From Nitrospirota bacterium (GTDB taxonomy: Bacteria; Nitrospirota; Nitrospiria; Nitrospirales; Nitrospiraceae), in NCBI GenBank assembly GCA_963701855.1, contig CAVPBK010000006.1:160001-224000 (forward strand): a stretch of 64,000 bases of DNA, read 5' to 3'. Below are positions 25,286 to 40,404 of the stretch, piece by piece. Under the pieces are notes generated by a model. It saw only the letters and a program-made list of their open reading frames with translations. It had not been told where the DNA came from and ran no database searches. Every line of letters begins with the position of its first letter. Position 1 is the stretch's first letter. The translations under genes and the position numbers were made by a program.

Positions 25286-25440
25286 ACTGGTAGTTGCGCG
25301 AACGTTCTGCCGCTTGGAGGGCTGCACTATAGACAGCGGCGGAGATCTCCGTCAATTCCTCCCTTTAAGGCACGTGCGGCTTGAAGCCCCTTGACCGGAT
25401 GATCAGTTTGGTCTTTAATGAGCCTCATCGGAGGCCTGTC

Positions 25441-25875
25441 TTGACAAATACACGTGTAAAAGAAATGCAGGCATTAAAGGAACACCTGGGTAAGCATCAG
25501 CTCAAGCTCACCCGCCAACGCGAATTGATTCTGAACGCCTTCCTCCGGCAAGAACACATTACAGCGGAGGCCATGTATCACCAGCTGGCTAAGTCAGATC
25601 CTCATCTGGGGCTCGCAACCATCTATCGGACACTCAATCTGTTCTGCGATGCCGGCCTTGCGCAAGCCCGGCATTTCGGCTCTCAGACGAAATACGACAA
25701 CGTCTCCCATAAAGGCCACCACGATCACCTCATCTGCACCGGATGCGAGAAGATCGTGGAATTTGAAAACGAAGAAATCGAGCGGCTCCAGGAAGAAGTA
25801 GCCACCCGGAACGGATTTACCATCAAAACCCACCGACTTGAGCTGTACGGCCTCTGTTCTCGCTGCCGTCATTGA
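25441..25875 (+). CDS. fur: Fur-family transcriptional regulator
   Basis: TRQR, LATIYRTL, HHDHLICxxC, CxxC; TTG start after GGAGG. Confidence 0.9.
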   Translation: MTNTRVKEMQALKEHLGKHQLKLTRQRELILNAFLRQEHITAEAMYHQLAKSDPHLGLATIYRTLNLFCDAGLAQARHFGSQTKYDNVSHKGHHDHLICTGCEKIVEFENEEIERLQEEVATRNGFTIKTHRLELYGLCSRCRH

Positions 25876-25901
25876 CGAACCAACTTTTTTTCAGTATCAT
25901 T

Positions 25902-25918
25902 TTGAGACAGTTTATCAA
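25902..25918. promoter_or_regulatory. Putative Fur box
   Basis: TTGAGACAGTTTATCAA dyad upstream of the iron ABC operon. Confidence 0.6.
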
Positions 25919-25942
25919 TTTCAATTCCATGAGGATCTCCAC

Positions 25943-26983
25943 ATGTTACTTACATGCTCCGTGCCCACATTATGTCGAACGATCCTCTCAAGCCTCCTTC
26001 TACTCTTTGCGGCCGGAACCTTTGTGCCCTCGGCCCAGGCTGCCGATACCCTCACGATTTACTCCGGTCGCTCGGAACGTCTCATCAAGCCGGTGCTCGA
26101 CGCCTTTACAACAAATACCGGCATTCAAATCGAGCTGTTGTCATCCGGCACGACGGAATTGGTCAATCGGCTGAAGGCTGAAGGCGATCGCACATCGGCA
26201 GATCTCTTGATCACCAATGACGCCGGCAGTTTGGAACTAGCCCGGGCAGCCGGCCTCCTCCATCCATTGAATATGCGGGAAGTTGACCGCGCCATCCCAC
26301 CCCAGTTTCGAGCATCGGATAATGCCTGGGTGGGACTTTCCGGACGATTCTGGATCGTGGTGTATAACACCACGATGGTAAAACCTGACCAAATAAAGTC
26401 GCTCCTCGACCTTGCCGATCCGAAATGGAAAGATAAGATTGCAATTCCGAATTCCGGCAGCGAGTATCTGCAAGCAGGCGTGTCGGTCATCCGCGCCACC
26501 TATGGCGATGAGAAGACCAGGCAGTTTCTGCAAGGCCTCAAAACCAATGCGGACAACCAGGTCTACCAGAAAAGCTCACAAATCGTGGATGCTGTCGCCA
26601 AGGGGCAAGTTGCCTTGGGTATCGTGAATCACTACTACGTGTACCGTCATCTGGCTGCTCAGCCAGGGGCGCCGATCGCGGTGGTGATGCCGGATCAGCA
26701 AGAAGGCGGCATGGGGGCGATCATGAACGTAGCCGGCGTCGGTATCATCAAGTCGACCAAGCGCCTCGATAGCGCCAAGCTGCTCGTGGAATTCTTAGTT
26801 GCTCAAGCAGGACAGAAGTTATTTGCGGAACTCGACAAGGAATATCCTCTCCACCAGGATGTAAAGGCAGACCCAGCGCTCGTAGACCGAAAGAGTTTCC
26901 GCGCGGCGCTGGTCCCCCTATCCAAGCTGGCTGAACTGCGCGAGCCAACTATCACATTGATCGAACAAGTGGGTCTCCGGTAA
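25943..26983 (+). CDS. Fe(III) ABC transporter substrate-binding protein (FutA/FbpA-like)
   Basis: LTIYSGR, NHYY tandem Tyr, EYPL, signal peptide. Confidence 0.88.
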   Translation: MLLTCSVPTLCRTILSSLLLLFAAGTFVPSAQAADTLTIYSGRSERLIKPVLDAFTTNTGIQIELLSSGTTELVNRLKAEGDRTSADLLITNDAGSLELARAAGLLHPLNMREVDRAIPPQFRASDNAWVGLSGRFWIVVYNTTMVKPDQIKSLLDLADPKWKDKIAIPNSGSEYLQAGVSVIRATYGDEKTRQFLQGLKTNADNQVYQKSSQIVDAVAKGQVALGIVNHYYVYRHLAAQPGAPIAVVMPDQQEGGMGAIMNVAGVGIIKSTKRLDSAKLLVEFLVAQAGQKLFAELDKEYPLHQDVKADPALVDRKSFRAALVPLSKLAELREPTITLIEQVGLR

Positions 26984-26999
26984 CTCGAAGGGACCCATC

Positions 27000-28583
27000 G
27001 TGAACACGAATCGCCACCAACTTGTTTCGCCACTGCAACTCGTTGCCTTGGCTACTGCCGGAATTATTCTCCTCCCGCTCGGCTATGTCACCGCACAAGC
27101 CCTCTCAGCCGATCCAGTTGTCTGGAGCCGTTTGTGGGCGACTCGCATTCCCGAGCTGCTGTTCAACACCGTCTCGCTGGCTGGCAGCGTGTCGGTCATC
27201 ACGCTAGTCCTCGGCGTCTCGACTGCCTGGCTGGTGACACGCGTAGAGTTTCCTGGTCGCAGACTGTGGGAGGGCGCCTTGGTCCTTCCATTGGCAATGC
27301 CGACCTATGTGCTGGCCTATGTTTATTCCTACCTCTTGGGATTCGGCGGCCCTGTCGAGCATCTCTGGCAACTACTGGCCGGACCCCAGGCGAGAATCTT
27401 TTCTCCCCATAGTTACTGGGGCGCGACACTCGTGATGGCATTGGATACCTTTCCCTTCGTCTATCTCCTCAGTCGGAGTGCGCTTCTCAGCATGAACGTG
27501 TCGTTCGAAGAGGTGGCACGGGCCAGCGGCGTTTCCCGTCTCTCGACTCTCTGGCGCGTGACGCTGCCGCTGATGCGTCCTTCGATCGCCGCCGGGGTTG
27601 CGCTCGTCATCTTGTACGTCGTGTCGGACTTCGGTGCGGTGTCATTGCTTCGCTACCAGACGCTCACCTATGCCGTGTTTCAGCAGATGACCGGACGATC
27701 CGACAATACCGCAGCGAGCATCTTGAGTCTCCTGCTGGTCGCGCTGGCACTGATTTTCCTGATCACTGAACGGTGGTTCCGACAACGGAGCCGGTTTTAT
27801 CAGACTACAGGCCGCTACCGAGCTCCTCAACGGCGCCAATATGGCTGGCTTGGCACCGCCGCCGTCACCGGCTATCTCGGGCTGATCATCGGTACAGCCT
27901 TCGCACTCCCAACCTCGCTATTGATTCAATGGAGCCTGTCGCCAGAGGCGCAGGCTACACTCGACAGCCGATTCTTCGGGTTCGTCTGGAACAGCGGCAT
28001 CCTGGCTGCCTGTGCCGCCACAGGTGGCGTATTGATCGGCTTGCCGCTGGCCTACCTGGCCAGCCGCCGCCCGACTGTGCTGAATCTGGGCTGTCTGCAA
28101 GCCGCCTATGCTGGCTATGTGCTTCCAGGACCGGTGGCGGCACTGGCTGTCCTCGTCCTCTTTACCAAGCTGGCTCCGGTGTTCTACGGCTCAGTACTGA
28201 TCCTCATCGTGGCCTACGTGATTCATTTTCTCCCAGCCGGCCTCCAGTCTCTGGAGCCGGCGCTCCAGCATATGTCGCCAAATCTGGAAGAAGTCGCACG
28301 CACACTGGGCCTTGGAATGCGTGACACCTGGCGACGGGTAACACTGCCACTTATTCGGAACGGATTTGTCGTAGCCTGGGTTTTGATATTTCTACAGACG
28401 ATGAAGGAATTACCTGCGACTCTTTTGTTGCGGCCGGTGGGATTCGACACCCTGGCCATTCGTGTCTGGATGGAAGCGAGCGAGGAATATTATCAGCTCG
28501 CCGCCCCCTCCGCGCTCCTCATTGTCTTACTAAGTCTCCCGGCACTGGTCTTGTTGGTCTCCAAAGATTGGCGCGCAGGATAG
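27000..28583 (+). CDS. Fe(III) ABC transporter permease
   Basis: Two EEVAR...G EAA loops, DFGAV, MKELPATLLLRP. Confidence 0.9.
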   Translation: MNTNRHQLVSPLQLVALATAGIILLPLGYVTAQALSADPVVWSRLWATRIPELLFNTVSLAGSVSVITLVLGVSTAWLVTRVEFPGRRLWEGALVLPLAMPTYVLAYVYSYLLGFGGPVEHLWQLLAGPQARIFSPHSYWGATLVMALDTFPFVYLLSRSALLSMNVSFEEVARASGVSRLSTLWRVTLPLMRPSIAAGVALVILYVVSDFGAVSLLRYQTLTYAVFQQMTGRSDNTAASILSLLLVALALIFLITERWFRQRSRFYQTTGRYRAPQRRQYGWLGTAAVTGYLGLIIGTAFALPTSLLIQWSLSPEAQATLDSRFFGFVWNSGILAACAATGGVLIGLPLAYLASRRPTVLNLGCLQAAYAGYVLPGPVAALAVLVLFTKLAPVFYGSVLILIVAYVIHFLPAGLQSLEPALQHMSPNLEEVARTLGLGMRDTWRRVTLPLIRNGFVVAWVLIFLQTMKELPATLLLRPVGFDTLAIRVWMEASEEYYQLAAPSALLIVLLSLPALVLLVSKDWRAG

Positions 28584-28785
28584 CAGGATGCTGAAAAACT
28601 ATGTTGAGACAGCGAGAACTTCGATAGGCACACATGTGGGGCAACAGGAAAGCATCGCGAAGGATGCTCAAAAAGACCGTCCAGCAAGGCCGCAGGCGAG
28701 TCGAAACCGGAGGCGTACCCTCTTGGGGTACGTTGAGGATTTCGGTGAGCCGAGAACGAAGCTGGCGGACTTTTTCAGCATCCTG
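28583..28785 (+). repeat. Family A element copy 7, with left extension
   Basis: GCAGGATGCTGAAAAA...TTTTTCAGCATCCTG, inserted inside the ABC operon. Confidence 0.88.
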
Positions 28786-28807
28786 GTAGAGAAAGGATCG
28801 TGATTCC

Positions 28808-29932
28808 GTGATCTCCGACCATTCCACTGCGCCACGCCCATCCGGGAAGGGCACATTCCAAGGCAACCTCTTTACACCCGCCTCCTCGATCTTGGAACTT
28901 CGCCACGTCTCCTGCGCCTACGAAACCGGCCGCCCAGCGGTCCAGGAAGTCTCATTCGCGGCAAGGGAGAGTGAAATTCTCTGCCTGCTCGGCCCCTCTG
29001 GATGCGGGAAAACGACAATTCTTCGGGCGATCGCTGGATTTGAACCAGTTCGCTCCGGCCAGATTTTCTTATCCGGCCAGCTCGTGTCGTCATCGGACAC
29101 GATGACCCCTACGGAGACCCGGCGCGTCGGGATGGTCTTTCAAGAATATGCGCTGTTTCCCCATCTGCGTGTACAGGACAACATCGCATTCGGCCTCCGC
29201 CATCTCGCTCGAAGCGTTCGCTCCGAGCAGGTCCAGGAGATGCTGCGCCTCACAGGACTAGAGGGATTCGAGCGGCGGTATCCGCACGAATTATCGGGTG
29301 GCCAACAACAACGGGTCGCGCTGGCTCGCGCCCTCGTTCAAAATCCTGTCGTGCTGCTGCTCGACGAGCCGTTCAGCAATTTGGACCCTGACATGGCCGG
29401 ACGCATGCGCCAAGAGTTGCACGACCTGTTACGCCGGACGAAAACAACGACCGTGCTCGTCACACACGATCATGACGAAGCCTTTGCCATGGCCGACCGG
29501 ATTGCCGTGCTCAACCAGGGCCGCTTGGAACAGTTCGATACGCCGGAAATCATGTACCACATGCCGGCCACGCCCTTCGTAGCCGACTTTGTCGGTCAGG
29601 CGGACTTCATTCCTGGAACCGTGTCTCAAGGCATGGTCCACACCGAACTGGGAGAGTTCCCCAACACGATCGAGTGCAAAGACGGCACCGCCGTGGTCGT
29701 CATGATTCGGCCGGACGACATTCACCTCGTCCCCACGGAAGGCGCCCGCGCACGCGTCATCTCTCGCCAGTTCCATGGCTCAGAGAATCTGTACGCGGTC
29801 AGTCTCCCATCCGGTCAAATTGTCCATAGCAGTCAAGGTTCCACGAGCGTCTATCAGGCAGGCACGACGGTGGAACTCCGTGTCTTGGCTACCCATACGG
29901 TGCTGTTTCGGCGAGAGGAATCCACCGGATAG
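28808..29932 (+). CDS. Fe(III) ABC transporter ATP-binding protein
   Basis: GPSGCGKT, LSGGQQQ, LLLDEP, TOBE-like tail. Confidence 0.92.
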   Translation: MISDHSTAPRPSGKGTFQGNLFTPASSILELRHVSCAYETGRPAVQEVSFAARESEILCLLGPSGCGKTTILRAIAGFEPVRSGQIFLSGQLVSSSDTMTPTETRRVGMVFQEYALFPHLRVQDNIAFGLRHLARSVRSEQVQEMLRLTGLEGFERRYPHELSGGQQQRVALARALVQNPVVLLLDEPFSNLDPDMAGRMRQELHDLLRRTKTTTVLVTHDHDEAFAMADRIAVLNQGRLEQFDTPEIMYHMPATPFVADFVGQADFIPGTVSQGMVHTELGEFPNTIECKDGTAVVVMIRPDDIHLVPTEGARARVISRQFHGSENLYAVSLPSGQIVHSSQGSTSVYQAGTTVELRVLATHTVLFRREESTG

Positions 29933-30063
29933 GTATCGCAGCCAATCCGACCAATCGCACGAGAGCATTGACAGGCTTTTTCACGATCTGGCATTGATAG
30001 ACCCTCACGACGGTCTCTAGCCTACCAGTTCGTGAATTACTGAGTGATAATGAGGCATCGTCT

Positions 30064-30495
30064 ATGAACGCGCTACAAAGCCTGGTCGATTATGGAGTCA
30101 TCGGACTCCTGCTAGCGCTCAGCGTCTGGACGGTCGCCATTGCGGTGGAGCGGTGGCTCTTTTACCGCCGTGTCGATCTCGCTCAATACCCCAGCAGCCT
30201 GGGATTGGAGATGGCTTTGACCAAACACCTGGTCATCATCGGCACGGTAGCCGCGAACGCCCCATATATCGGTTTGCTGGGCACCGTGCTCGGTATCATG
30301 CTCACCTTCCATACGATGGGGACCTCCGGCACCATGGCCGTCAATGCCATCATGATCGGGCTCAGCCTTGCGCTGAAGGCTACGGCGGTCGGACTGATGG
30401 TTGCAATTCCCTGCGTCGTCATGAATAACATACTCCGGCGGAAGGTGGCGGAACTTCTCGCCCGACACAAGGAACAGCATGCAGCGGGACATTGA
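30064..30495 (+). CDS. exbB: ExbB, short form
   Basis: APYIGLLGTVLGIM, ALKATAVGL. Confidence 0.9.
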   Translation: MNALQSLVDYGVIGLLLALSVWTVAIAVERWLFYRRVDLAQYPSSLGLEMALTKHLVIIGTVAANAPYIGLLGTVLGIMLTFHTMGTSGTMAVNAIMIGLSLALKATAVGLMVAIPCVVMNNILRRKVAELLARHKEQHAAGH

Positions 30496-30853
30496 CCAAA
30501 TCAACGTCATCCCCCTCGTGGACGTCATGCTGGTCCTGTTGGTCATCGTGCTGACTACCGCCACCTTTATCAGCAGCGGACAAATTCCGGTCAATTTGGC
30601 AAAAGCGAAGGAAGTCGGCAATCGTAAAGAGGCTCCCATTGTCATCACCCTGACTGCCGATGGCGCACTCTTTCTCAACAACCGCGCCGTTCTTGAAGGA
30701 GGGCTCCAGGGAGCACTGGCTGCGGAACCTCGTGAGTCGTCGGTGATCGTGCGGGCGGATAAAGTCACCCTCCTCGAACGATTCGTGTCCGTGGTCGATG
30801 AAGTGCGTGGTTTGGGATTCCAACAAGTCAGTCTAGAGGTCATTCGACTGTGA
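30479..30853 (+). CDS. exbD: ExbD
   Basis: INVIPLVDVMLVLL, RADK. Confidence 0.9.
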   Translation: MQRDIDQINVIPLVDVMLVLLVIVLTTATFISSGQIPVNLAKAKEVGNRKEAPIVITLTADGALFLNNRAVLEGGLQGALAAEPRESSVIVRADKVTLLERFVSVVDEVRGLGFQQVSLEVIRL

Positions 30854-31761
30854 TCACTACTGGGCCATATCGCTCCGTAAACCATAAGGAAGCTCACGTC
30901 CAGGGATGGCTCGTCTCCATCCTCTTGCATGGCACCATGGCGCTCGCAGCAATTCTGTTTGTGAAACAAGTCCAACTCGCGCCACAGGACGAGGCCTTCA
31001 AGTGGAACGTTGCCATGGTATCGCCTCTACAATCGGTTCAGCCAACGACATCATCCCCGAACCAAGTCCCGTCTCGGTCCATTCCACCGCCGGCTTCGAC
31101 TCCCCCACCTCCCATGCAGCAACCTGCGTCGGCACAGATGCTTCCAGCGCCCCAGCCGTTTTCGCAACAGACGAGGCCTTCGATTTCTGAGCGGACCAGT
31201 GCCGCGGTGATGACTGAATCTTCCGCACCGACCCCAACACAATCGGCTGAGCCGATCAAACATGAGACTGTGACACCGATGGTCGCCGAGTCTACATCCA
31301 CTGTGAAACCGGCCGACGCGCCGACAGCAGTCCCTGCGGAGCCTGCTGCCCAGACGGAACCAACGAGCGCGCCGCCTGCAATCCTTGAACAGACCGCACA
31401 ATCTGACGCGGCTCCGGCACCAACACAAATGGCAGCCATCTCCTCTACACCATCAAACGCGCCGAAGAAACGCGACTACGGATGGCTCTCTGAGACGATT
31501 TTACGTCGTGTGGAAGAACTCAAACGCTACCCCGCCTCAGCTCGGGTGGATCGAGCCGAGGGGAAAGTTGTGGTGAAGGCCATGATCGACGAGGATGGGA
31601 GCATCGGTGAAGTGGAAGTTTTTCAGAGTTCGGGACATCCCGGCCTCGACAAAGCTGCGATTGAAACTCTGCGACAGGCAGCCCCGTTCCACTTACCTCG
31701 TCCATTAGGACAGCCGCACATGACGATCAAGATTCCCATGAGCTATCGATTGGACCGGTAG
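30850..31761 (+). CDS. tonB: Energy transducer TonB
   Basis: S...H TM anchor, Pro-rich linker, YP...EGKV...SSG...LD C-terminal domain. Confidence 0.88.
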   Translation: MITTGPYRSVNHKEAHVQGWLVSILLHGTMALAAILFVKQVQLAPQDEAFKWNVAMVSPLQSVQPTTSSPNQVPSRSIPPPASTPPPPMQQPASAQMLPAPQPFSQQTRPSISERTSAAVMTESSAPTPTQSAEPIKHETVTPMVAESTSTVKPADAPTAVPAEPAAQTEPTSAPPAILEQTAQSDAAPAPTQMAAISSTPSNAPKKRDYGWLSETILRRVEELKRYPASARVDRAEGKVVVKAMIDEDGSIGEVEVFQSSGHPGLDKAAIETLRQAAPFHLPRPLGQPHMTIKIPMSYRLDR

Positions 31762-31788
31762 CTCGAAGGAGGAACGGAACGCATCCGG

Positions 31789-32811
31789 CTAGGGTACGCG
31801 AATCCGCTGCCTCAAGCCGGAGGAGACCAGCATGTGACCATCTTGGTCGACAATGATGGCTTCGACATCCGGCAACTGTTCGACCAATTCCATGCCTCGC
31901 GCCGGCCCCATTACAAAGATACCTGTATCGAGTCCATCGGCCCAAACCCCTTCACGAGCAATCACTGTGACACTCTGGCAACTGCGCGCTGGTTGAAGCG
32001 TGCGCGGATCGAGAATGTGATGATATCGAACCCCTTCCCGTTCGAAGAAGCGTTCATAATCCCCGGCGGTAGAAATGGCTTCGTCCTGCAAATCAATCCA
32101 GGCCAGCACCAATCCATCTTTTCGTGGGTGTTGAATGCCGACGGGAAACATCTTCCCTCCCGGCAACCGTCCGAATGTTTTGATATCCCCTGATACCGCT
32201 ACGACTCCGGCAACAGCGCCGGCTCTCCGTAACGCCTCAACGGCTTGATCTGCTGCGTATCCCTTACCGATTCCACCCACGTCGATCCGCATCCCTGCTT
32301 TCCTAAGATAGATTGTCTGGTTTCGCACATCGACATGAACCGCCTGCAGATTCACTAAGGGCCGGAGAGTCTCCAGTTCAGATTCTGTCGGTACTCGTTG
32401 GCTTTCCATCACATTCCATGCGTCCACCGCAGGACCAATGGCGATATTGAATCCACCATCGGTCATCTCCGCAACTTGAATCGCACGTTGTACGACCGTC
32501 AGCGTCTCTGGGCTTACATGGACCGGCATGATTCCCGCCGAAGCGTTCACACGAGAAAGTTCGCTCGTCGGAATCCAAGTGCTCAGGAGTTCTTCCAATC
32601 GTCGGATTTCAGCAAACCCGGCGGTCGCCGAAGCGTGCGCGACCGCCTCGTTCCGAGCGACCGCGGTGATCGTGACCAGCGTGCCCATTTGCATCTGAAC
32701 CCGTTTCACCACGACAGGCTCGGACTGCATGGGAAAGCCCGCGCACCCAACGGACAACGCCCCTAGCATAAACAACATACCACCTGATATGTGAGGGAGT
32801 GTCCGCCACAC
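31789..32811 (-). CDS. apbE: FAD:protein FMN transferase
   Basis: MGT, DVGGIGKGY, HHILDPRT, ADGLDT; lipobox. Confidence 0.92.
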   Translation of the reverse strand: MWRTLPHISGGMLFMLGALSVGCAGFPMQSEPVVVKRVQMQMGTLVTITAVARNEAVAHASATAGFAEIRRLEELLSTWIPTSELSRVNASAGIMPVHVSPETLTVVQRAIQVAEMTDGGFNIAIGPAVDAWNVMESQRVPTESELETLRPLVNLQAVHVDVRNQTIYLRKAGMRIDVGGIGKGYAADQAVEALRRAGAVAGVVAVSGDIKTFGRLPGGKMFPVGIQHPRKDGLVLAWIDLQDEAISTAGDYERFFEREGVRYHHILDPRTLQPARSCQSVTVIAREGVWADGLDTGIFVMGPARGMELVEQLPDVEAIIVDQDGHMLVSSGLRQRIRVP

Positions 32812-32820
32812 GGTCAGCGT

Positions 32821-33444
32821 CTACCACCAATGACGACGGAAATATCCTAAAATGCGGGGATAAGGCATGACTTCATACAGGCGGGCCGCTTCATGTGACG
32901 GTTCCGGAATCAGCATCACCGGAACCCTCGCATTATAAGTGGGATATGTGTCCTTGACGAACTGTCGGGCTCGCTCCTGGTCTTGCTCATCAAGAGTCAT
33001 GGATACAACGACTTGGCGTCCATATTTCGGAGAATCCACTCCGAAATGCCAGGTGCCGAGAAAAGTCATTACGTTCGGCTTGAGCACAAAGTTCGCTGAG
33101 AGCTCCGCCATGGACAAGAATGGACCTTCGCTGATCTGCACGCGACTCAGTTCATAGGTCCCAGGAGGAAGGGCAAGCGAAAAGTACTCGTCCGCGGACT
33201 GCACATCGACCTTAAATCGCTCCTGGTTCGCCATATTTATCACCTCGAAAGAACGGAGTTCCGGAGCATAGATTCGTTGCATTTCACCGGTAATGTTCGT
33301 GACAACCCGTCCCACCACCAAGGTCCCCGAAATGTCAGCCGCCGCCACCATCACGGGAAGTTCTGTGGCACAGCCTGAGAGAGTCAGGCAGAGGGCACCG
33401 ATAGACAACCACCACCGATATTGTCTCAATAATCTGTACCGCAT
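32821..33444 (-). CDS. Hypothetical lipoprotein
   Basis: LSGC lipobox; directly upstream of apbE. Confidence 0.7.
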   Translation of the reverse strand: MRYRLLRQYRWWLSIGALCLTLSGCATELPVMVAAADISGTLVVGRVVTNITGEMQRIYAPELRSFEVINMANQERFKVDVQSADEYFSLALPPGTYELSRVQISEGPFLSMAELSANFVLKPNVMTFLGTWHFGVDSPKYGRQVVVSMTLDEQDQERARQFVKDTYPTYNARVPVMLIPEPSHEAARLYEVMPYPRILGYFRRHWW

Positions 33445-33508
33445 ATGTCGATATTATAACCCAACTACGAGACCAATACCTGGCGTCCCGCTGATCAAGT
33501 CCCCCCTC

Positions 33509-33551
33509 TTGACTCCAATTGCGAAAATAGGATATTAATAATCGTTCTCAA
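33509..33551 (+). promoter_or_regulatory. Promoter overlapped by a putative Fur box
   Basis: TTGACT -35; TTAATAATCGTTCTCAA (33535-33551) followed by TTTCA, as at 25902. Confidence 0.6.
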
Positions 33552-33579
33552 TTTCATTTGAGCAGAGGAGTATCTCGCA

Positions 33580-33759
33580 ATGACGAGCACGACGTCTCCT
33601 ATGAACCACTTCGCCGACTGCGGCGAGACCCGCTGCGAGTGCGGTCAATTGATCGCCAAGGTGCGCGATCAAGGGTTGGAGCTCAAATGCAAGCGCTGTA
33701 AACGTATCGTTGTCATCCCATTCTCTTCAATCGAAGGATGGGGCACTGTTGATTCATGA
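33580..33759 (+). CDS. 59-aa Com-like zinc-finger protein, absent from the ORF track
   Basis: GAGGAG RBS; MTSTTSPMNHFADCGETRCECGQLIAKVRDQGLELKCKRCKRIVVIPFSSIEGWGTVDS. Confidence 0.75.
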   Translation: MTSTTSPMNHFADCGETRCECGQLIAKVRDQGLELKCKRCKRIVVIPFSSIEGWGTVDS

Positions 33760-33896
33760 TTCGTCTCACGAAAGGAGGCATTGGAAGTGTTGTCGCACTA
33801 TCCCATTTGCACAGACTAGTCATTTCTTCAAGAAGGCCAGAGACCATCGAGTCCCGAGTCAGACCTCAACCATCTCACTCACCACGGAGGATACCG

Positions 33897-35402
33897 ATGA
33901 AGATCCGGTCAATCCTCGGGGCTCTCGTGATTGCAGCTTTGCCGTTTACTTCGGTTTGGGCTGAGAACATGACCCCAGAGGACATTAAAAAGTTAGTGGA
34001 TGAAGCCGTGACGAAGCGGCTGCAAGAACAGGAACGCCGCGATGGCGCTCCTGAGCAGAAAGAGGGTACGGCAATACCCAAGGCCGAACCGGGAATTGGA
34101 CCGCTGCCGGAAGTCAGTAAAGACCTTCGTACGGAGACACAGCCTGCGTTGTCCTTTAGTTCAACCGGCTCAGGTCGTTTGGTCTATGCCAAGCCGTTCG
34201 TCTCCGCACCGAAGGCTATTGTCGGAGGATACATGGATATGCAGTTTCGGTCCCAACGGCAAGCCAGCATCGAAGCCGGTGATGGCCGACCCGGTGTGAC
34301 CAACAACTTCGATCAGCAACGGTTTATCCCGTTTATTTATGCCGACGTCACCGAACACGTCAAGATCGCGACCGAACTTGAAATTGAGCACGGCGTCAGA
34401 GAAAGCTCTGAGAATGAGATCGAAGTCTCACTTGAGTTTGGTTTTATCGACTACTTAATCCAAGAAAAGGTCAACCTACGTGCCGGAATCTTGCTTATGC
34501 CCCTTGGGAAGTTCAATTTGCTACACGACTCCCCACTAAACGATCTCAGTGATCGGCCGCTGGTCAGCCAATTGGTCATCCCTTCTACCATGTCGGAAAC
34601 TGGAGCGGGAATCTACGGAACGTTTTATCCCGGCCGGACCAGTAAGATGGACTACGAGTTGTACGTCACAACCGGTCCCTGCGGCTACGGGGCCAACGGC
34701 AGTCCTCTCGTCAATGAAGCGGATGGCACAAGTCAAGGGCGTCAGAGGACCTGTGCAGGGCACGATGGCGCCGATGTCAACAGTGGCAAAGCGGTCGTCG
34801 GACGCATGGCCTACAGCCCAATGCTTGGGGTGGAAGTCGCCGGATCAAGCTACTTTGGAAATGCGAACAATAATGGGAGCAATTACGCCCCTCTCAACAT
34901 CACAGCGATCGACTGGACGCTCCAGCGAGGCCCCTTTGAACTCATCGGCGAAGCTGCCTGGGCTTATGCGAGAGGAAATTCTCGAGCCGTTCAAGGAAAT
35001 ACGATTGGATTTTCTCCGGGTTCCCTGCTTATTGGTTCCCCCGACATCAGCGGCAACAGCGGTGCAGGCATCCCGCCGCAGCGCATGATGGGCTACTATA
35101 TCCAAGGCAACTATCATTTCATGCCCCAGTTCTTGACCAATTTCTCCCCAAAACGCTTCGGTCCAGGTTCGACCATGACCGCCGTGATCCGGTACGACCG
35201 GGTCAACACCAACTTGGATGACTCCAATGGAACAGGCGGCTGGGGCAATCTGGAACAGGTTTCCTTTGGCCTGAATTATCGACCGATTGAAGATACGGCC
35301 ATTAAGCTCAGCTACCAATATCAACCGATGGCGTTTAACGCGGTTACATCACAGCGTATTCACGACAGTGCCGTGGTAATGTCGATAGCAACATATTTCT
35401 AG
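33897..35402 (+). CDS. Outer-membrane beta-barrel (porin-like) protein
   Basis: GGAGG RBS, signal peptide, short coiled coil, ELEIEHG, amphipathic strands, terminal YF. Confidence 0.8.
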   Translation: MKIRSILGALVIAALPFTSVWAENMTPEDIKKLVDEAVTKRLQEQERRDGAPEQKEGTAIPKAEPGIGPLPEVSKDLRTETQPALSFSSTGSGRLVYAKPFVSAPKAIVGGYMDMQFRSQRQASIEAGDGRPGVTNNFDQQRFIPFIYADVTEHVKIATELEIEHGVRESSENEIEVSLEFGFIDYLIQEKVNLRAGILLMPLGKFNLLHDSPLNDLSDRPLVSQLVIPSTMSETGAGIYGTFYPGRTSKMDYELYVTTGPCGYGANGSPLVNEADGTSQGRQRTCAGHDGADVNSGKAVVGRMAYSPMLGVEVAGSSYFGNANNNGSNYAPLNITAIDWTLQRGPFELIGEAAWAYARGNSRAVQGNTIGFSPGSLLIGSPDISGNSGAGIPPQRMMGYYIQGNYHFMPQFLTNFSPKRFGPGSTMTAVIRYDRVNTNLDDSNGTGGWGNLEQVSFGLNYRPIEDTAIKLSYQYQPMAFNAVTSQRIHDSAVVMSIATYF

Positions 35403-35412
35403 GCGGAGTATG

Positions 35413-35444
35413 GGCGATCCCTCTCTCAACAGAGAGGGATCGCC
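35413..35444 (+). other. Perfect 14-bp-stem intercistronic hairpin
   Basis: GGCGATCCCTCTCT-caac-AGAGAGGGATCGCC, with no T-tract. Confidence 0.75.
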
Positions 35445-35470
35445 ATGACCAAGAAAGAGCAGTGTGCAGC

Positions 35471-35935
35471 ATGACAACACTCCGAATAGCTATGGTGGTC
35501 CTCGCGCTCTACTCTGTTGGATGCGCTACTCTGAGTGGAAGTCACGATCAATATTTCGTATGCTCCTATGACACTGTCTGGGATGCCGCGCTCGACACCA
35601 TGAAGGGACAATCCATCGCAACCTACGACAAAGATAAGGGAGTGATCGAGACAAACTGGCTGGACGTCCCTCCAATCTCGGAACGGTCCTACGGGATATT
35701 TGAGCGTGATAGCTTTGGGAACCAAGAACGGGCACGCTATACTGTCTCCGTCAAGCGAATGAACGACGTGTCCTCTGCAAGCATCTTAGAAACCAGGCAG
35801 CGATGGCATGCACGCGGTGGCGTCACCCAGCAAGCCTTGAGGTGGTGGCCCATCGAACCATCGGATGATGCGACGGATGTAGTCGTCAGTCGGCTCAATG
35901 CCAAGTTGAAAACCAAGGGGTGTATTCCCGCATGA
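35471..35935 (+). CDS. Hypothetical lipoprotein (BamC/NlpB-like motif)
   Basis: SVGC lipobox; YDTVWDAAL...DKDKGVIETNW. Confidence 0.7.
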   Translation: MTTLRIAMVVLALYSVGCATLSGSHDQYFVCSYDTVWDAALDTMKGQSIATYDKDKGVIETNWLDVPPISERSYGIFERDSFGNQERARYTVSVKRMNDVSSASILETRQRWHARGGVTQQALRWWPIEPSDDATDVVVSRLNAKLKTKGCIPA

Positions 35936-36609
35936 GGCTTCGATTACTTGCGCCCGCACTGGCACTTTCCTGTATCATGTCTCCGGCCATGGTCCTGGCT
36001 GAACGTGTATGGGACAAAGATCTCAAACGCTACCTCACGGACCAAGAGCTGATGCGGGCCGACGTCTTTCTGACAGAAGAAGACGCCCTCAAATTGATGT
36101 TCCCCCAATCAGAACGGATCCGGAAAGAAATTCTGAAGCTAAGCCAGGAAAAGAAACTGCAGGTTGAGGAACGCATTGGCTGGAAATTCCCGGAAGATTC
36201 ATTTGAGATCTACATTGGAGAAACGGGCACCCAGATTGATGGGTATGCCCTGGTCCAGAACACAATCGGTAAACACAAACCCATGACGTACATGGTCGGA
36301 ATAGATAACACCGGGCATGTCTTGAACGTAGAATTGTTGGTGTTTCGGGAAGCTCGCGGCAGCGAGGTGCGGACCAAACGCTTCAACGTACAGTACGAGG
36401 GGAAAACGGTCCTCGATCCGGTCCGCCTCAACAAAGACATCATCAACATCAGCGGCGCCACCATGTCGGTCCGCTCAATGACCGCAGGAATTAAACGGGG
36501 GCTGGTGTTGGTCGATGAGTTTTATTTGAAACCGGCAGGGCTCGGTAGCGATACTGTGGATTCAAAGAAATCGGAGAAGGGCATCTTCGGCTCACTCTTC
36601 GGAAACTAA
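35932..36609 (+). CDS. Extracytoplasmic FMN-binding protein
   Basis: Signal peptide; GKHKPMTY; ISGATMS flavinylation motif. Confidence 0.85.
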   Translation: MRLRLLAPALALSCIMSPAMVLAERVWDKDLKRYLTDQELMRADVFLTEEDALKLMFPQSERIRKEILKLSQEKKLQVEERIGWKFPEDSFEIYIGETGTQIDGYALVQNTIGKHKPMTYMVGIDNTGHVLNVELLVFREARGSEVRTKRFNVQYEGKTVLDPVRLNKDIINISGATMSVRSMTAGIKRGLVLVDEFYLKPAGLGSDTVDSKKSEKGIFGSLFGN

Positions 36610-36633
36610 GAGGGGTAGACCACATTTTCAGCT

Positions 36634-37152
36634 ATGCGCAACTTCAACACTCGCTTCCGTCTCCGCGACTCAGATCGGCACATCCGGCTCGTTTATACCT
36701 TCTTTCTCTTCTTGATGCTGGCTGGCTTTACCTTTTCATTTTTCTGGGCGCACAGCATGACGAGCCTTTCGCCACAAGGAATCGCCGATCATTACCGGGG
36801 ATCGGATGTCACATTCGGCGAGCCGATGTCATTCAGAGAGCTGGCAGAGATCACCCACTTCCACCTCTTCACGATGCCAGTCGTGTTTATCATTCTCGTG
36901 CATGTGCTCTATCTCACCAGCGCCAGCAGTATGCTAAAAGTCCTCACGACCTGGATCTCATTTGGTGGGGTGACGTTGGACCTGGTATCTCCCTGGCTCA
37001 TTAGCTATGTCTCCCCCGTATTCGTGTTCACCATGCTGACAGGCGATACCTTGATGACGGTGGGTTTTCTCATCATGATGATCATCCCTCTCTACGAGAT
37101 GTGGATCTTGAACCAGCCGCTATTGGCAGGGAAACACGGGAAGGAAGAATGA
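36634..37152 (+). CDS. Four-TM membrane protein, possibly heme b-binding
   Basis: Hydrophobic helices with His residues (THFHLF, LVHVLY). Confidence 0.7.
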   Translation: MRNFNTRFRLRDSDRHIRLVYTFFLFLMLAGFTFSFFWAHSMTSLSPQGIADHYRGSDVTFGEPMSFRELAEITHFHLFTMPVVFIILVHVLYLTSASSMLKVLTTWISFGGVTLDLVSPWLISYVSPVFVFTMLTGDTLMTVGFLIMMIIPLYEMWILNQPLLAGKHGKEE

Positions 37153-37259
37153 CCTAACGCGCTCTGACTTCGACACAATTAACGGCCAGAGGTTTTTCAC
37201 CCAGAGCCCAAGATCACGCGATGTGGTCTTGGGTTCTGCTTTTTTTCGGAGAAGCCACG

Positions 37260-37970
37260 ATGTACCCATATATCTCTGAACAGATTCACCCTGGAATCAT
37301 CACGATTCAGGGCATGCTCAGGAAGATCGATTGCCTTCGACTCCCTCTCGCATCGCGCCGTGACGTCGAAAGCATCCTTGTGCGGCAAGTCAGCAAAGAA
37401 ATCGATCGCGCACTCCCCTGGCAAGCTGGTCATGGCCGCCGCACTGCTGCGATTTCGTTGTTGATCGGACGAGCGGTCGGCACGACGACAGGCGAGTTGC
37501 ACGATCTGAAACTCGCCGCCTTCCTCCACGATATCGGGCTCTTGAGGCTCCCAGCCCGCCTCATCCCGGCCAAGGAACCGCTTGAATCTGAAGACTACGT
37601 CGCCATTCAGAATCATCCCCGGCTTGGTGCGACACTGCTTGAGCCATTCTCCTTCTTAAAAGAGGCTTCGATCCAAATCGCGCACCACCACGAACGGTGG
37701 GATGGATCAGGCTATCCGTATGGTATCAGAGGACAATTCATCCCTCTCGGAGCCAGAATCCTCTCGATCGCCGACGCCTTCGATGCCATCCGTATCCCTG
37801 AAGTCTCAAACCGAGCCGTGCGAAACAGGATCGCACTCAGAATTCTCCGAGTCGCAGCCGGCACCCAGTTTGACCCGGAGTTAGTCGAGGCATTGTGGCT
37901 GTTCCAAGAATCTATTCCGGGCTCAAATCTTATCGAACCAACGACGAGAAACTGTTTTGATTCACATTAG
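37260..37970 (+). CDS. HD-GYP domain protein
   Basis: LHDIG and HHERWDGSGYP. Confidence 0.88.
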   Translation: MYPYISEQIHPGIITIQGMLRKIDCLRLPLASRRDVESILVRQVSKEIDRALPWQAGHGRRTAAISLLIGRAVGTTTGELHDLKLAAFLHDIGLLRLPARLIPAKEPLESEDYVAIQNHPRLGATLLEPFSFLKEASIQIAHHHERWDGSGYPYGIRGQFIPLGARILSIADAFDAIRIPEVSNRAVRNRIALRILRVAAGTQFDPELVEALWLFQESIPGSNLIEPTTRNCFDSH

Positions 37971-37989
37971 AAGTATGGGAGGTTTCACC

Positions 37990-39747
37990 ATGTTTCCCTC
38001 TTATCGCCGCCACAGGGTCTTCGCGCATGTCGTCGGAATATCATCTTGGATCTTCATCTCGCTTCTCCTGGTCGGATGCGGAGGGGGCAGCGGCAGTTCC
38101 GCACCACCTTCAGTCGCGGCTACAGGAACACCTGGAGCCCAAGCCGACGTCGGCGAACGGCTGTTCGTCGAAACCCGCTTTGCCCAATTCTTTAAGGCAA
38201 ATCTTCTTCCAGGGGGAAATGTAAATGATCCACTGCCAGCCGGCGACCCGGTCGTAGCCAAGGTGTTACTCCCCGGCAGTACTCCACCCGGTGTCGCTAG
38301 TCCATTTGCTGGAATGTCCATGAATTGTCGATCCTGTCACTTCGTTGACGAATTTGTGGGAGTTCCTGGTGGAGGTATGCGCACCTATGCCGACTTCGCC
38401 ACCCGCAGTCCAATTCCATCTCGCCCGGATGGAAAACTCACGGCGCCGCGCAACTCTCCTCCGCTGGTGAACTCCTCACTCGATAGACCAGGAGGAACGT
38501 TATTTCACTTTGATGGAGAGTTTTCGACGCTGGAGGATCTCATCGTCGGAACCTTCACCGGTCGGAATTTCGGCTGGTTGCCGGGGCAAAAGGCGGAAGC
38601 CATCAGCCACATTGCACGAGTCATGCGCGAGGATGATGGCACGGGAGCTATCGCTCAGCAATTCGATGGACTTTCCTATAGCGCCCTGTTCACCGGAGCC
38701 AACCCAAACATTCCGGATGAACTTCGTCTGCCCACGGAATTTCGTGTGAACATCCAATCAGCCAGTGACCAGGAAATCTTCGACGCGGTCGTGAAAGTGG
38801 TCGCGGCCTACGTCAACGGCTTGCGCTTCTCACAAACCGACGACGCCGGCAATCTCATCCGTTCGCCCTTCGACGTGTTTTTGAGTCGCAACGGTCTCCC
38901 GCAAAAGCCGAACAGTGGCGAAACTCCCCTCGATTATAGCCGCCGCCTCCTGACGCTCGTGAACGGATTGGCTAGTCCTCAGTTCGTGACTGCTAACCCC
39001 AATAACCCCAGCCTGCTTGGAAAGTTCCAGTTCCACGGCACCCAGCCCTTTGCATTCGGGGCTCAGGAATTAGCAGGCCTTAAGATATTTCTTACAGAAC
39101 CGGCTACTCCGCCAACCGCTTCACCAGCAGAAGAACTCGCCGGCAAGGTCGGCAACTGCCTGGCCTGCCATGCCGCACCAAATTTCACGGACTTCAAGCT
39201 GCACAATACAGGGATTGCACAAAATGAATACGACGGCATCCATGGCAATGGGTCTTTCATGGGCCTCACGATTCCAACTCTCGCTACGAGAACCAGCAAT
39301 GATCTGCCTGCTACGGAAGACCACCCCACTGCAACGGGATTTTTCCGTTCGATCCCTGTCCTAGCCGATCCTGCCCTGACCGATTTGGGAATCTGGAACA
39401 TCTTCCTGAATCCAGACATGCCGAACCCACAAGCAAAGATCCGAGCCATTCTGTGTGACGAGCACCTTCCCGCCGCTTGTCCTGCCGACAGTGTTCTACT
39501 GGATGAAGCCATTGCGAGATTCAAAACACCTGGTCTTCACGATTTGGGGCATTCAGCTCCCTATATGCACAATGGCCAGTTCGTCGCATTGGACAATGCC
39601 GTCGGTTTCTATCTCGGCTCATCAAGCGCGGCAAGGGCAGGAACGCTTCGTAACGGCGCCAACACGTTGCGAGGAATTGCCTTGATTTCGGCAGACATCG
39701 CGCCACTTGTGGCGTTCCTTAAGTCGCTGAACGAGGACTACCAATAG
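37990..39747 (+). CDS. Di-heme cytochrome c peroxidase/MauG-superfamily lipoprotein
   Basis: LVGC lipobox; CRSCH and CLACH; RNSP; FKTPGL...APYMHNG. Confidence 0.82.
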   Translation: MFPSYRRHRVFAHVVGISSWIFISLLLVGCGGGSGSSAPPSVAATGTPGAQADVGERLFVETRFAQFFKANLLPGGNVNDPLPAGDPVVAKVLLPGSTPPGVASPFAGMSMNCRSCHFVDEFVGVPGGGMRTYADFATRSPIPSRPDGKLTAPRNSPPLVNSSLDRPGGTLFHFDGEFSTLEDLIVGTFTGRNFGWLPGQKAEAISHIARVMREDDGTGAIAQQFDGLSYSALFTGANPNIPDELRLPTEFRVNIQSASDQEIFDAVVKVVAAYVNGLRFSQTDDAGNLIRSPFDVFLSRNGLPQKPNSGETPLDYSRRLLTLVNGLASPQFVTANPNNPSLLGKFQFHGTQPFAFGAQELAGLKIFLTEPATPPTASPAEELAGKVGNCLACHAAPNFTDFKLHNTGIAQNEYDGIHGNGSFMGLTIPTLATRTSNDLPATEDHPTATGFFRSIPVLADPALTDLGIWNIFLNPDMPNPQAKIRAILCDEHLPAACPADSVLLDEAIARFKTPGLHDLGHSAPYMHNGQFVALDNAVGFYLGSSSAARAGTLRNGANTLRGIALISADIAPLVAFLKSLNEDYQ

Positions 39748-39927
39748 AGAAATTCAACAACAGCAGAAGCACTCAGCCGGTGCCCGATATACCTGCAGCG
39801 GAGAGAGAGGGGTGGTGCCCTCCCACTCCGCGGGCAAGGGGCTCCTCTTCCCTCTGAAGCCTTCCCGCCTTACTTTCCGAAGATACAACGCGGACTGGAC
39901 GAACATGGAATATACAGTGGAGATGCC

Positions 39928-40404
39928 TTAGGACTCCTTTTTGATCTGTTCAGCCAGGTAGTTCTCAAGCCCCACCTGTTTAATCGTTTCCATCTGCGTT
40001 TCGATCCAATCGATATGTTGATCCACGTCTTTGGCCATATCTTCAAGCATGTGCCGCGTGGTGAAGTCGGTCACCTTCGTACAATGCACCACACCATCGT
40101 TTAACAGACTGAGCATTTCTTGTTCCGCTTTTAGATCCAGTTTGAACTGCTCAGGAACAGTCTCCCCTACCTGCACAGTATTCATACGCTGCACGTTCGG
40201 CACACCATCCAGATAGAGAATGTGGCCAATGAGTTCATCGGCGTCTTTCATCTCGGCGATGCTCCGCTCTCGCACTTTATGATGGAGCCGTTCATAGCCC
40301 CAGTTCTCACACATCTTGGCATGAACAAAGTATTGATTGATGGCGGTGAGATCCGCAGTCAGGATCTTATTGAGGATGTTGACGACGCCTTCTTTCGCTT
40401 TCAT
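39928..40404 (-). CDS. bfr: Bacterioferritin-like subunit
   Basis: 158 aa; AINQYF.H, EM52, HIDW, GLENYL. Confidence 0.9.
   Translation of the reverse strand: MKAKEGVVNILNKILTADLTAINQYFVHAKMCENWGYERLHHKVRERSIAEMKDADELIGHILYLDGVPNVQRMNTVQVGETVPEQFKLDLKAEQEMLSLLNDGVVHCTKVTDFTTRHMLEDMAKDVDQHIDWIETQMETIKQVGLENYLAEQIKKES

Follow-up and report, generated by a model that had tools for sequence, protein, structure and literature searches.

A Com-like zinc-ribbon gene heads a Nitrospira iron-uptake operon and may act as a Com-type RNA switch on its porin

Why should a gene for a very small cysteine-rich protein stand at the head of a bacterial iron-uptake operon? The question is raised by a 64,000-nucleotide (nt) stretch of a Nitrospirota genome (GenBank assembly GCA_963701855.1, contig CAVPBK010000006.1, positions 160,001 to 224,000), here called the window, whose numbering we use throughout. 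An open reading frame (ORF) at 33580-33759 (+), the com-like gene, encodes a 59-amino-acid (aa) Cys4 zinc-ribbon protein (CxC...CxxC) and lies directly in front of a porin gene (33897-35402, +). A first, sequence-only reading of the window had likened this protein to Com of phage Mu and had suggested a domesticated phage switch acting on RNA. We followed up the suggestion computationally, and we put at roughly 60% the probability that the locus encodes a Com-type protein-RNA switch in which the Com-like protein binds a conserved core element of its own mRNA and activates porin translation.

We asked whether the com-like ORF is a gene. The ORF was found where it had been reported, first in the operon, with a strong ribosome-binding site (RBS; GAGGAG, 33565-33570, +, 9 nt 5' of the ATG) and the pattern RCECG...LELKCKRCKR in its translation. 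The sequence-only reading hinged on its conservation, and conserved it is: a protein collection search returned 527 relatives, the best 120 of which are 78-100% identical and mostly 59 aa long, and a whole-genome search found a match in 46/61 related genomes (31/36 in the genus; 10/10, 3/9 and 1/5 in three other families of the order). The Joint Genome Institute (JGI) name 'phage FluMu protein Com' is attached to some of the relatives, and an NCBI Nitrospira entry is also among them. For counts of codons, gene order, core and helix we used the best 80 of the 454 loci found as the Nitrospira set. Over residues 16-52, the minor-allele fractions in these 80 loci were 0.054 at first, 0.007 at second and 0.270 at third codon positions. 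By this codon-position signature, the com-like ORF is a translated gene under strong purifying selection. An alignment of 30 diverse members showed that R18, C19, C21, G22, L24, A26, K36, C37, R39, C40 and R42 are invariant and that C14 is not conserved. An AlphaFold2 (AF2) model of the protein has a three-stranded ribbon core, with a predicted local distance difference test score (pLDDT) of 82-85, and residues 1-15 are disordered.

We wondered how this protein relates to Com itself. When Mu com was taken from NC_000929 for comparison, BLASTP aligned the two proteins at 35% over 31 aa (expectation value, E, 9e-5), and hhalign of the family alignment against Mu Com gave a probability of 93.5% (E 2.2e-7, 30 columns). 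PHROG matches were 6417 'translational regulator' (E 3.5e-4) and 13819 'gpCom' (E 7e-3). The Com architecture, a protein of about 60 aa with four cysteines in two knuckles some 16 residues apart, is present: C19, C21, C37 and C40 are invariant in the 30 members, and the Mu Com cysteines are C6, C9, C26 and C29. Profile membership was scored on PF10122 (Zn_ribbon_Com), whose gathering score is 22.9 bits and with which the Mu Com control reaches 36.8 bits. The profile was matched by 10/30 family members (E up to 1); a same-genome paralogue on another contig, C5, passes it (23.7 vs 22.9 bits), and the other matching relatives score 13-20 bits. The only Pfam match of the window protein was Zn_ribbon_4, at a permissive threshold (E 0.043). 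The Com identity that had been claimed thus stands as remote homology, by BLASTP, hhalign and PHROG, but not as a match of the window protein to PF10122; in our reading, the com-like protein is a divergent branch of the Com superfamily, and by Pfam's own rule it lies outside PF10122. A tblastn search of 50,697 phage records with the protein gave no match better than E 1, and a sequence profile search of the PDB returned nothing convincing (best E 0.013, an unrelated phosphatase).

The gene order points to a target. The porin lies directly 3' of the com-like gene in 27/30 loci; two of the remaining three end at contig ends and the third is a paralogue. The same order was seen in 79/80 further Nitrospira loci and in 12/12 orthologue-grade loci of two other families, whose porins are 37-50% identical. 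As for com and mom, then, the putative regulator gene stands directly upstream of its putative target and is co-oriented with it. That a phage switch was turned to chromosomal use is presumed; the com-porin pair is kept at the level of the order, and no phage genes lie nearby.

Does the spacer between the two genes contain a target site? The 137 nt between the com stop and the porin ATG carry the motifs that had been pointed out: GAAGGCC (33832-33838), GAGACC (33840-33845), GAGTCCC (33849-33855), CCTC (33864-33867) and GGAGG (33886-33890). The spacers of 27 genus loci are 89-137 nt long and strongly diverged, the 5' half being absent in three loci, and their core is fixed. An N-terminal extension of the porin, starting at an ATG that overlaps the com stop (33756), was ruled out, because the spacers vary in length by steps that are not multiples of 3 and can lack their 5' half. 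The core is a 31-nt element at 33835-33865 (+) with three GAG..CC-type units, GAGACC (33840-33845), GAGTCCC (33849-33855) and GAGTCAGACC (33856-33865, sharing C33855), and is the candidate binding site of the Com-like protein. In the 79/80 Nitrospira loci that could be anchored, 28/31 of its positions are invariant or nearly so; the variable ones are 33846-33848, between GAGACC and GAGTCCC. The expectation that the motif cluster would be conserved was borne out also in three deep lineages, where it is the most conserved part of the spacer. The pairing proposed between CCTC and GGAGG fared otherwise: CCTC is not conserved, the position being T in 20/79 loci and A in 58/79.

The bipartite GAG..CC motif is rare in the genome, where both strands together hold 23 strict and 147 relaxed matches over 4.30 Mb, and a 17-nt pattern of the core has one exact genome match. 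Because the gene is conserved, the core near-invariant and the motif rare, the spacer and gene features are more than chance. We rejected the core as a dispersed repeat: its 3-mismatch matches numbered 7, below the 14 of the reversed-pattern controls. A triple GAG..CC motif on contig C4 fell inside an opposite-strand coding region and was discarded as chance, and a permissive Rfam scan of 33400-34000 gave chance-level matches only (best E 3.9). Elsewhere in the spacer, about 12 nt after the com stop, a Shine-Dalgarno (SD)-like block, GAAAGGAGG (33770-33778, +), is found in 24/27 genus spacers, and a similar AAGGAGG occurs there in loci of other families; by eye, the genus alignment has no conserved start codon for a small ORF behind it, and this ORF was discarded.

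We compared the core with the known site of Mu Com. In the Mu study, systematic evolution of ligands by exponential enrichment (SELEX) yielded a motif of two GAG(N)2CC units with 2-3 nt between them; the sequence recognised by Mu Com is CC(N)2-3GAG, displayed in a hexaloop on a 3-4 bp stem with a closing C-G pair, and the GA dinucleotide is crucial for recognition (PMC6483171). The GAG-N2-CC site named in the sequence-only reading is correct by the same source. The window core, which reads GAGACC, 3 nt, GAGTCCC, matches this SELEX motif, and its free positions are the N positions of the motif. Exact copies of the motif are found in other lineages (GAGGACC-AG-GAGTCCC in locus L041, GAGGACC-CC-GAGTCCC in L043-L045), and family f2 has two copies in tandem. 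The core is also predicted to fold into a local hairpin, GAC[CATCGA]GTC (33842-33853, +), with a 3-bp stem and a hexaloop closed by C-G; the predicted hexaloops are CAUCGA here and CUGCGA in the Mu site, which folds as AUGC[CUGCGA]GCAU. The putative target RNA therefore has the GAG..CC repeats and the hexaloop hairpin of the Com/mom type, with N1 in the first unit of the genus. As far as sequence comparison goes, the gene, its conservation, its Com homology, the gene order, the conservation of the element and its match to the motif are firm.

We then wondered how a site in the spacer could affect the porin. In minimum free energy (MFE) folds of the 27 genus loci, GAGUCCCGAG (33849-33858) pairs with CUCGGGGCUC (33915-33924), enclosing the porin SD (GGAGG, 33886-33890, +) and its AUG (ATG 33897-33899, +). 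The 5' arm of this predicted long-range helix (GAGTCCCGAG, 33849-33858, +) overlaps the second and third motif units, and its 3' arm (CTCGGGGCTC, 33915-33924, +) falls in porin codons 7-10 (+19..+28). The MFE folds also pair GACC (33862-33865, +) with GGTC (33907-33910, porin +11..+14), with weaker support than for the 10-bp helix. The long-range helix is the RNAalifold consensus of the 27 loci and the longest ungapped helix in 26/27 of them. In 79 loci, 787/790 helix cells form standard pairs: among the 10 variant cells, pairing is preserved in 7 (U-G to U-A in five, G-C to G-U in two) and lost in 3.

The porin side of the helix is unusually constrained. Codons 5-9 use one codon each in 27/27 loci, among porins as low as 47% identical, and such single-codon usage occurs in just 1% of 164 other conserved-residue porin columns. 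The observed helix length was reached by 7 and 20 of 1000 synonymous shuffles in the genus and by 21 and 17 of 1000 in family f3, which has a helix of 12-13 bp at the same mRNA positions, with two compensatory changes relative to the genus (+26, +27). Measured by RNA duplex energy the excess over synonymous shuffles is moderate: 0-25/300 shuffles reach the observed value in 21/27 genus loci, and up to 146/300 in the others. A synonymous-site test on few and similar sequences gave 5/7 against a 50% background in f2 and 5/8 against 35% in f3. Both helix arms are clearly conserved and constrained in these alignments. Invariant blocks can also be protein-DNA sites, and the core might be an operator or an internal porin promoter; we consider this very improbable, since its conservation in concert with synonymous sites 65 nt downstream, together with variants that keep the pair, argues for RNA, the core has neither dyad symmetry nor helical phasing, and a consensus scan of 33760-33896 gave no promoter-like match.

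We propose that the target of the Com-like protein is the near-invariant GAG..CC element that its own mRNA carries between the com-like and porin genes. The core would alternate between two conformations, the Com-type hexaloop hairpin and the pairing of GAGUCCCGAG with porin codons 7-10, which would close the RBS into a loop. The motif fits the hairpin or the helix, never both; protein binding would therefore select between the two conformations and so set the porin translation rate. Activation would result if binding prevents the inhibitory long-range helix, and we favour this sign because Mu Com is an activator and because, as set out below, related motifs extend into the 5' arms of terminators, which are inhibitory. 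We infer the RNA binding, the conformational switch and the sign of regulation alike.

Several observations weigh against this proposal. PF10122 fails to match the window protein even when E up to 10 is allowed, the first knuckle reads CxC versus CxxC in Mu Com, and Foldseek of the AF2 model against viral models gave a best E of 0.43, with 0 matches at E up to 0.001. The first motif unit in the genus is GAG-N1-CC, where the motif has N2. The covariation check suggested at the outset came out negative within the genus, where 0/15 alifold pairs covary. Helix length in family f2 does not exceed that of synonymous shuffles (429 and 271 of 1000 reach it), and the 106-nt region as a whole folds like shuffles (z -0.25; 74/200 as stable). 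The 3' arm starts at +19, at the edge of the ribosome footprint. A look for RNA runs covering 33400-37400 listed none. Finally, in-silico blocking of the motif lowered SD accessibility from 0.40 to 0.27 in the window and from 0.65 to 0.28 in L045, left it unchanged in L046 and raised it slightly in L041; there was no rise in 3/4 representatives. The 10-bp helix overlaps the motif and encloses the SD and the AUG, yet the region shows no excess stability and blocking the motif in silico gave no clear opening of the RBS.

The same protein and RNA could also work with the opposite sign, the Com-like protein repressing porin translation in negative feedback or as a delayed shut-off. Here the helix would be the permissive state, tying up the CCUC of codons 6-7, and binding would free AUCCUC to pair with the SD. 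The folds suit repression as well as they suit activation, because the freed AUCCUC can pair in this way: in the window RNA with its motif blocked, GGAGGAU pairs with AUCCUC as SD accessibility falls, and the fall in L045 is the larger. AATCCTC is moreover invariant in 27/27 loci, and a 10-bp helix that begins only at +19 fits a permissive role. Against this, Mu Com is an activator, the SD is GGAGGTT in part of the genus and would pair less well with AUCCUC, and in f3 a structure of very high stability (-65.5 kcal/mol) takes up the start region, as would suit the need for an activator. The related motifs at terminators also speak for relief of inhibition upon binding. We therefore hold repression to be unlikely and activation to be the better reading.

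These related motifs came from a second site downstream in the same operon region. Element 2 (37184-37209, +), which reads GGCCAGAGG, 7 nt, CCCAGAGCCC, lies between the genes of a membrane protein and an HD_5-domain protein and has GGCCAGAG in common with the start of the core. Its pattern occurs once per genome in 27/61 genomes (26/36 of the genus plus the window's own, 0/24 in other families), whereas reversed-pattern controls gave 0 matches in the 61 genomes. Comparison of coordinates places 18 matches on the contig and strand of com, 3.3-3.6 kb downstream of it. A com paralogue stands directly upstream of element 2 and the HD gene in 2 genomes, and in 7 genomes with element 2 com is on a different contig or was not found. 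The second half of element 2 is the 5' arm of an intrinsic terminator (37202-37246, +), which consists of a 17-pair stem-loop (37202-37238) and a run of seven T (37240-37246). This terminator is far more stable than expected (z -4.35; 0/200 shuffles as stable) and is kept in 27 loci, one of which (L149) shows a compensatory change. The HD_5-domain gene follows, from an ATG at 37260 to 37970 (+), with GGAG ahead (37249-37252). The mechanically called start of this ORF, an ATG at 37221, falls inside the terminator loop; the ATG at 37260, which aligns with the starts in relatives, is the likelier start.

Com paralogues gave a similar picture. Behind them, TCCAGAGCCC runs into a strong intrinsic terminator in 6/9 paralogue loci that we read, including the copy on contig C5 of the window's own genome. 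This copy (C5:292904-293020; L058:2469-2657), the one that passes PF10122, has a TonB gene upstream. Further paralogous com-like genes are found at L051, L052, L056 and L057, and at these four and the C5 copy the terminator is followed by a gene for a secreted protein without a Pfam family. Two relatives have a further com paralogue after a CCP-like gene (L055, G010:C58:15631-15744; L052, G032:C111:3316-3429). The L055 copy reads KCKCFRR versus KCKRCRR, with one knuckle cysteine displaced, and may be decaying.

Element 2 and the paralogue motifs suggest that Com-type proteins might act by antitermination. Generalised, a Com-type family would act in cis at two kinds of inhibitory hairpin, RBS-closing helices and terminators whose 5' arm carries a CCAGAG / GAG..CC motif, and its members would be translational regulators as well as a new class of protein-dependent antiterminators, forming a post-transcriptional iron layer below Fur with a Cys4 site that is possibly Zn- or Fe-dependent. 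This broader scheme is tentative, and we consider it rather doubtful as a whole; that the Cys4 site senses metal, as the sequence-only reading had imagined, is pure conjecture.

The paralogue data also bear on whether the Com-like protein is the agent that reads the core at all. The core and the frozen porin codons could be read by a small RNA, serve as an RNase E site or a ribosome standby site, or form a self-contained structure, with the zinc-ribbon protein serving the envelope module in another way, for example in metal handling or in its assembly. Such a reader would be in keeping with a window protein that misses PF10122 and to which we can attribute RNA binding by inference, with the functional diversity of small zinc ribbons, and with PDB sequence matches that are unrelated at E 0.013 or worse. 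Yet the element matches a motif derived independently, by SELEX, for a homologous protein, free positions included; related motifs recur 3' of paralogous com-like genes in different gene contexts; and basic residues (K36, R39 and R42, all invariant) stand on either side of the second knuckle, an arrangement shared with Mu Com. We regard another reader as distinctly unlikely and retain the Com-like protein as the probable ligand of the core.

The surroundings of the locus fit an iron-uptake role for the operon. The best explanation of the gene order is an operon of the com-like gene, the porin (which has a signal peptide and a weak Porin_O_P match), a lipoprotein (35462-35935, +), an FMN-binding protein (FMN_bind, 35920-36609, +) and a 4-helix membrane protein of 172 aa (36634-37152, +). 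In the window gene annotation it lies within an iron island (25381-40404) that also holds a FUR-family gene (25381-25875), a ferric-type ABC transporter (25838-29932), ExbB/ExbD/TonB (30064-31761), ApbE (31789-32811, -), the HD_5 gene, a CCP/MauG-like di-haem protein (37957-39747) and a ferritin (39928-40404, -). Upstream of the com-like gene, a consensus scan found a promoter-like site (33509-33536, +; TTGACT 33509-33514, 16-nt spacer, GATATT 33531-33536), whose TTGAC -35 block is conserved in 29 genus loci. The predicted -10 hexamer is overlapped by a 29-nt block (33531-33559, +) that is identical or nearly so across 29 aligned orthologous loci and that we take to resemble a Fur box (15 of 19 consensus positions by our own count). 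The block is a putative Fur box that probably controls the com-like/porin operon, and with the iron island and an invariant Fur-box-like block ahead of the operon the chromosomal iron-uptake setting claimed by the sequence-only reading was upheld. Between ApbE and the Fur-box-like promoter, a divergent gene (32821-33444, -) encodes a predicted 207-aa lipoprotein without a family match; it may share the regulatory region of that promoter.

How does this arrangement compare with known systems? It resembles Mu com/mom in the protein (about 60 aa, four cysteines in two knuckles, and the pattern RC..C..L..K....E.KC.RCKR common to both), in a regulator gene that lies immediately upstream of the controlled gene on the same strand, and in a target RNA, putative here, that combines GAG..CC repeats with a hexaloop hairpin whose closing pair is C-G. 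The hairpin bound by Com in Mu stands right beside the stem in which the mom start lies (PMC6483171); in Nitrospira, similarly, the motif touches or overlaps the 5' arm of a predicted structure formed with the start region of the next gene. The two differ in context, because the Nitrospira pair is chromosomal and belongs to a housekeeping iron-uptake operon kept across the order, whereas the Mu target is a phage DNA-modification gene. They differ in the site, the Nitrospira candidate lying in the intergenic spacer and the Mu site inside the com ORF, and in the structure, a predicted long-range helix (-48..-39 with +19..+28) with the SD and AUG in its loop against a short hairpin with a GUG start in its stem. 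Unlike in Mu, the first knuckle is CxC, the protein falls below the Pfam threshold, a second motif sits at a terminator, and the switch is put forward from sequence.

Com-like genes ahead of genes other than mom have been described before. In Pseudomonas they precede bacteriocin (llpA), tailocin-cargo, lysis and levansucrase genes, and their role there is presumed to be regulatory and 'remains to be explored' (Ghequire and De Mot 2018, PMC6240691). The Nitrospira gene shares with these cases a short com-type gene, often unannotated, directly upstream of a non-mom chromosomal gene; it differs in that the Pseudomonas genes are tied to phage-derived or antagonism functions, with no RNA site or structure reported in the accessible part of the paper, whereas here there is a candidate site with a candidate helix and an envelope iron module (PMC6240691). 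In FluMu, Pnm1 and H. influenzae biotype aegyptius, too, Com homologues precede methyltransferases other than Mom (PMC3299994). As in these cases, a com-like gene is retained while the downstream gene differs, but those pairs are inside Mu-like prophages (PMC3299994). The literature that we searched contained nothing on a com-like gene in Nitrospira, in iron operons or in antitermination, and there Com was studied solely for its control of a single phage gene, mom. That com-like genes can precede genes other than mom is already known, and the Nitrospira iron-operon setting is new in that literature.

Taken together, the locus joins a homologue long fixed in a core metabolic operon with a candidate site that matches a SELEX motif, a candidate helix defined to the base and a second site at a terminator. 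It makes the role of chromosomal Com-like proteins directly testable and suggests that nitrite oxidisers may tune an envelope iron-reduction/uptake module post-transcriptionally. The terminator sites invite one last comparison. RNA-binding antiterminators of the BglG/SacY, HutP and PyrR types bind the 5' part of a terminator, and the candidate motifs of element 2 and the paralogues likewise overlap the 5' arm of a terminator upstream of the next gene; the folds of Com-type proteins are unrelated to theirs, however, and antitermination is here our proposal only. We know of no Com-type protein that acts on termination. If the terminator sites are true targets, Com-type proteins would be a new type of antitermination factor.

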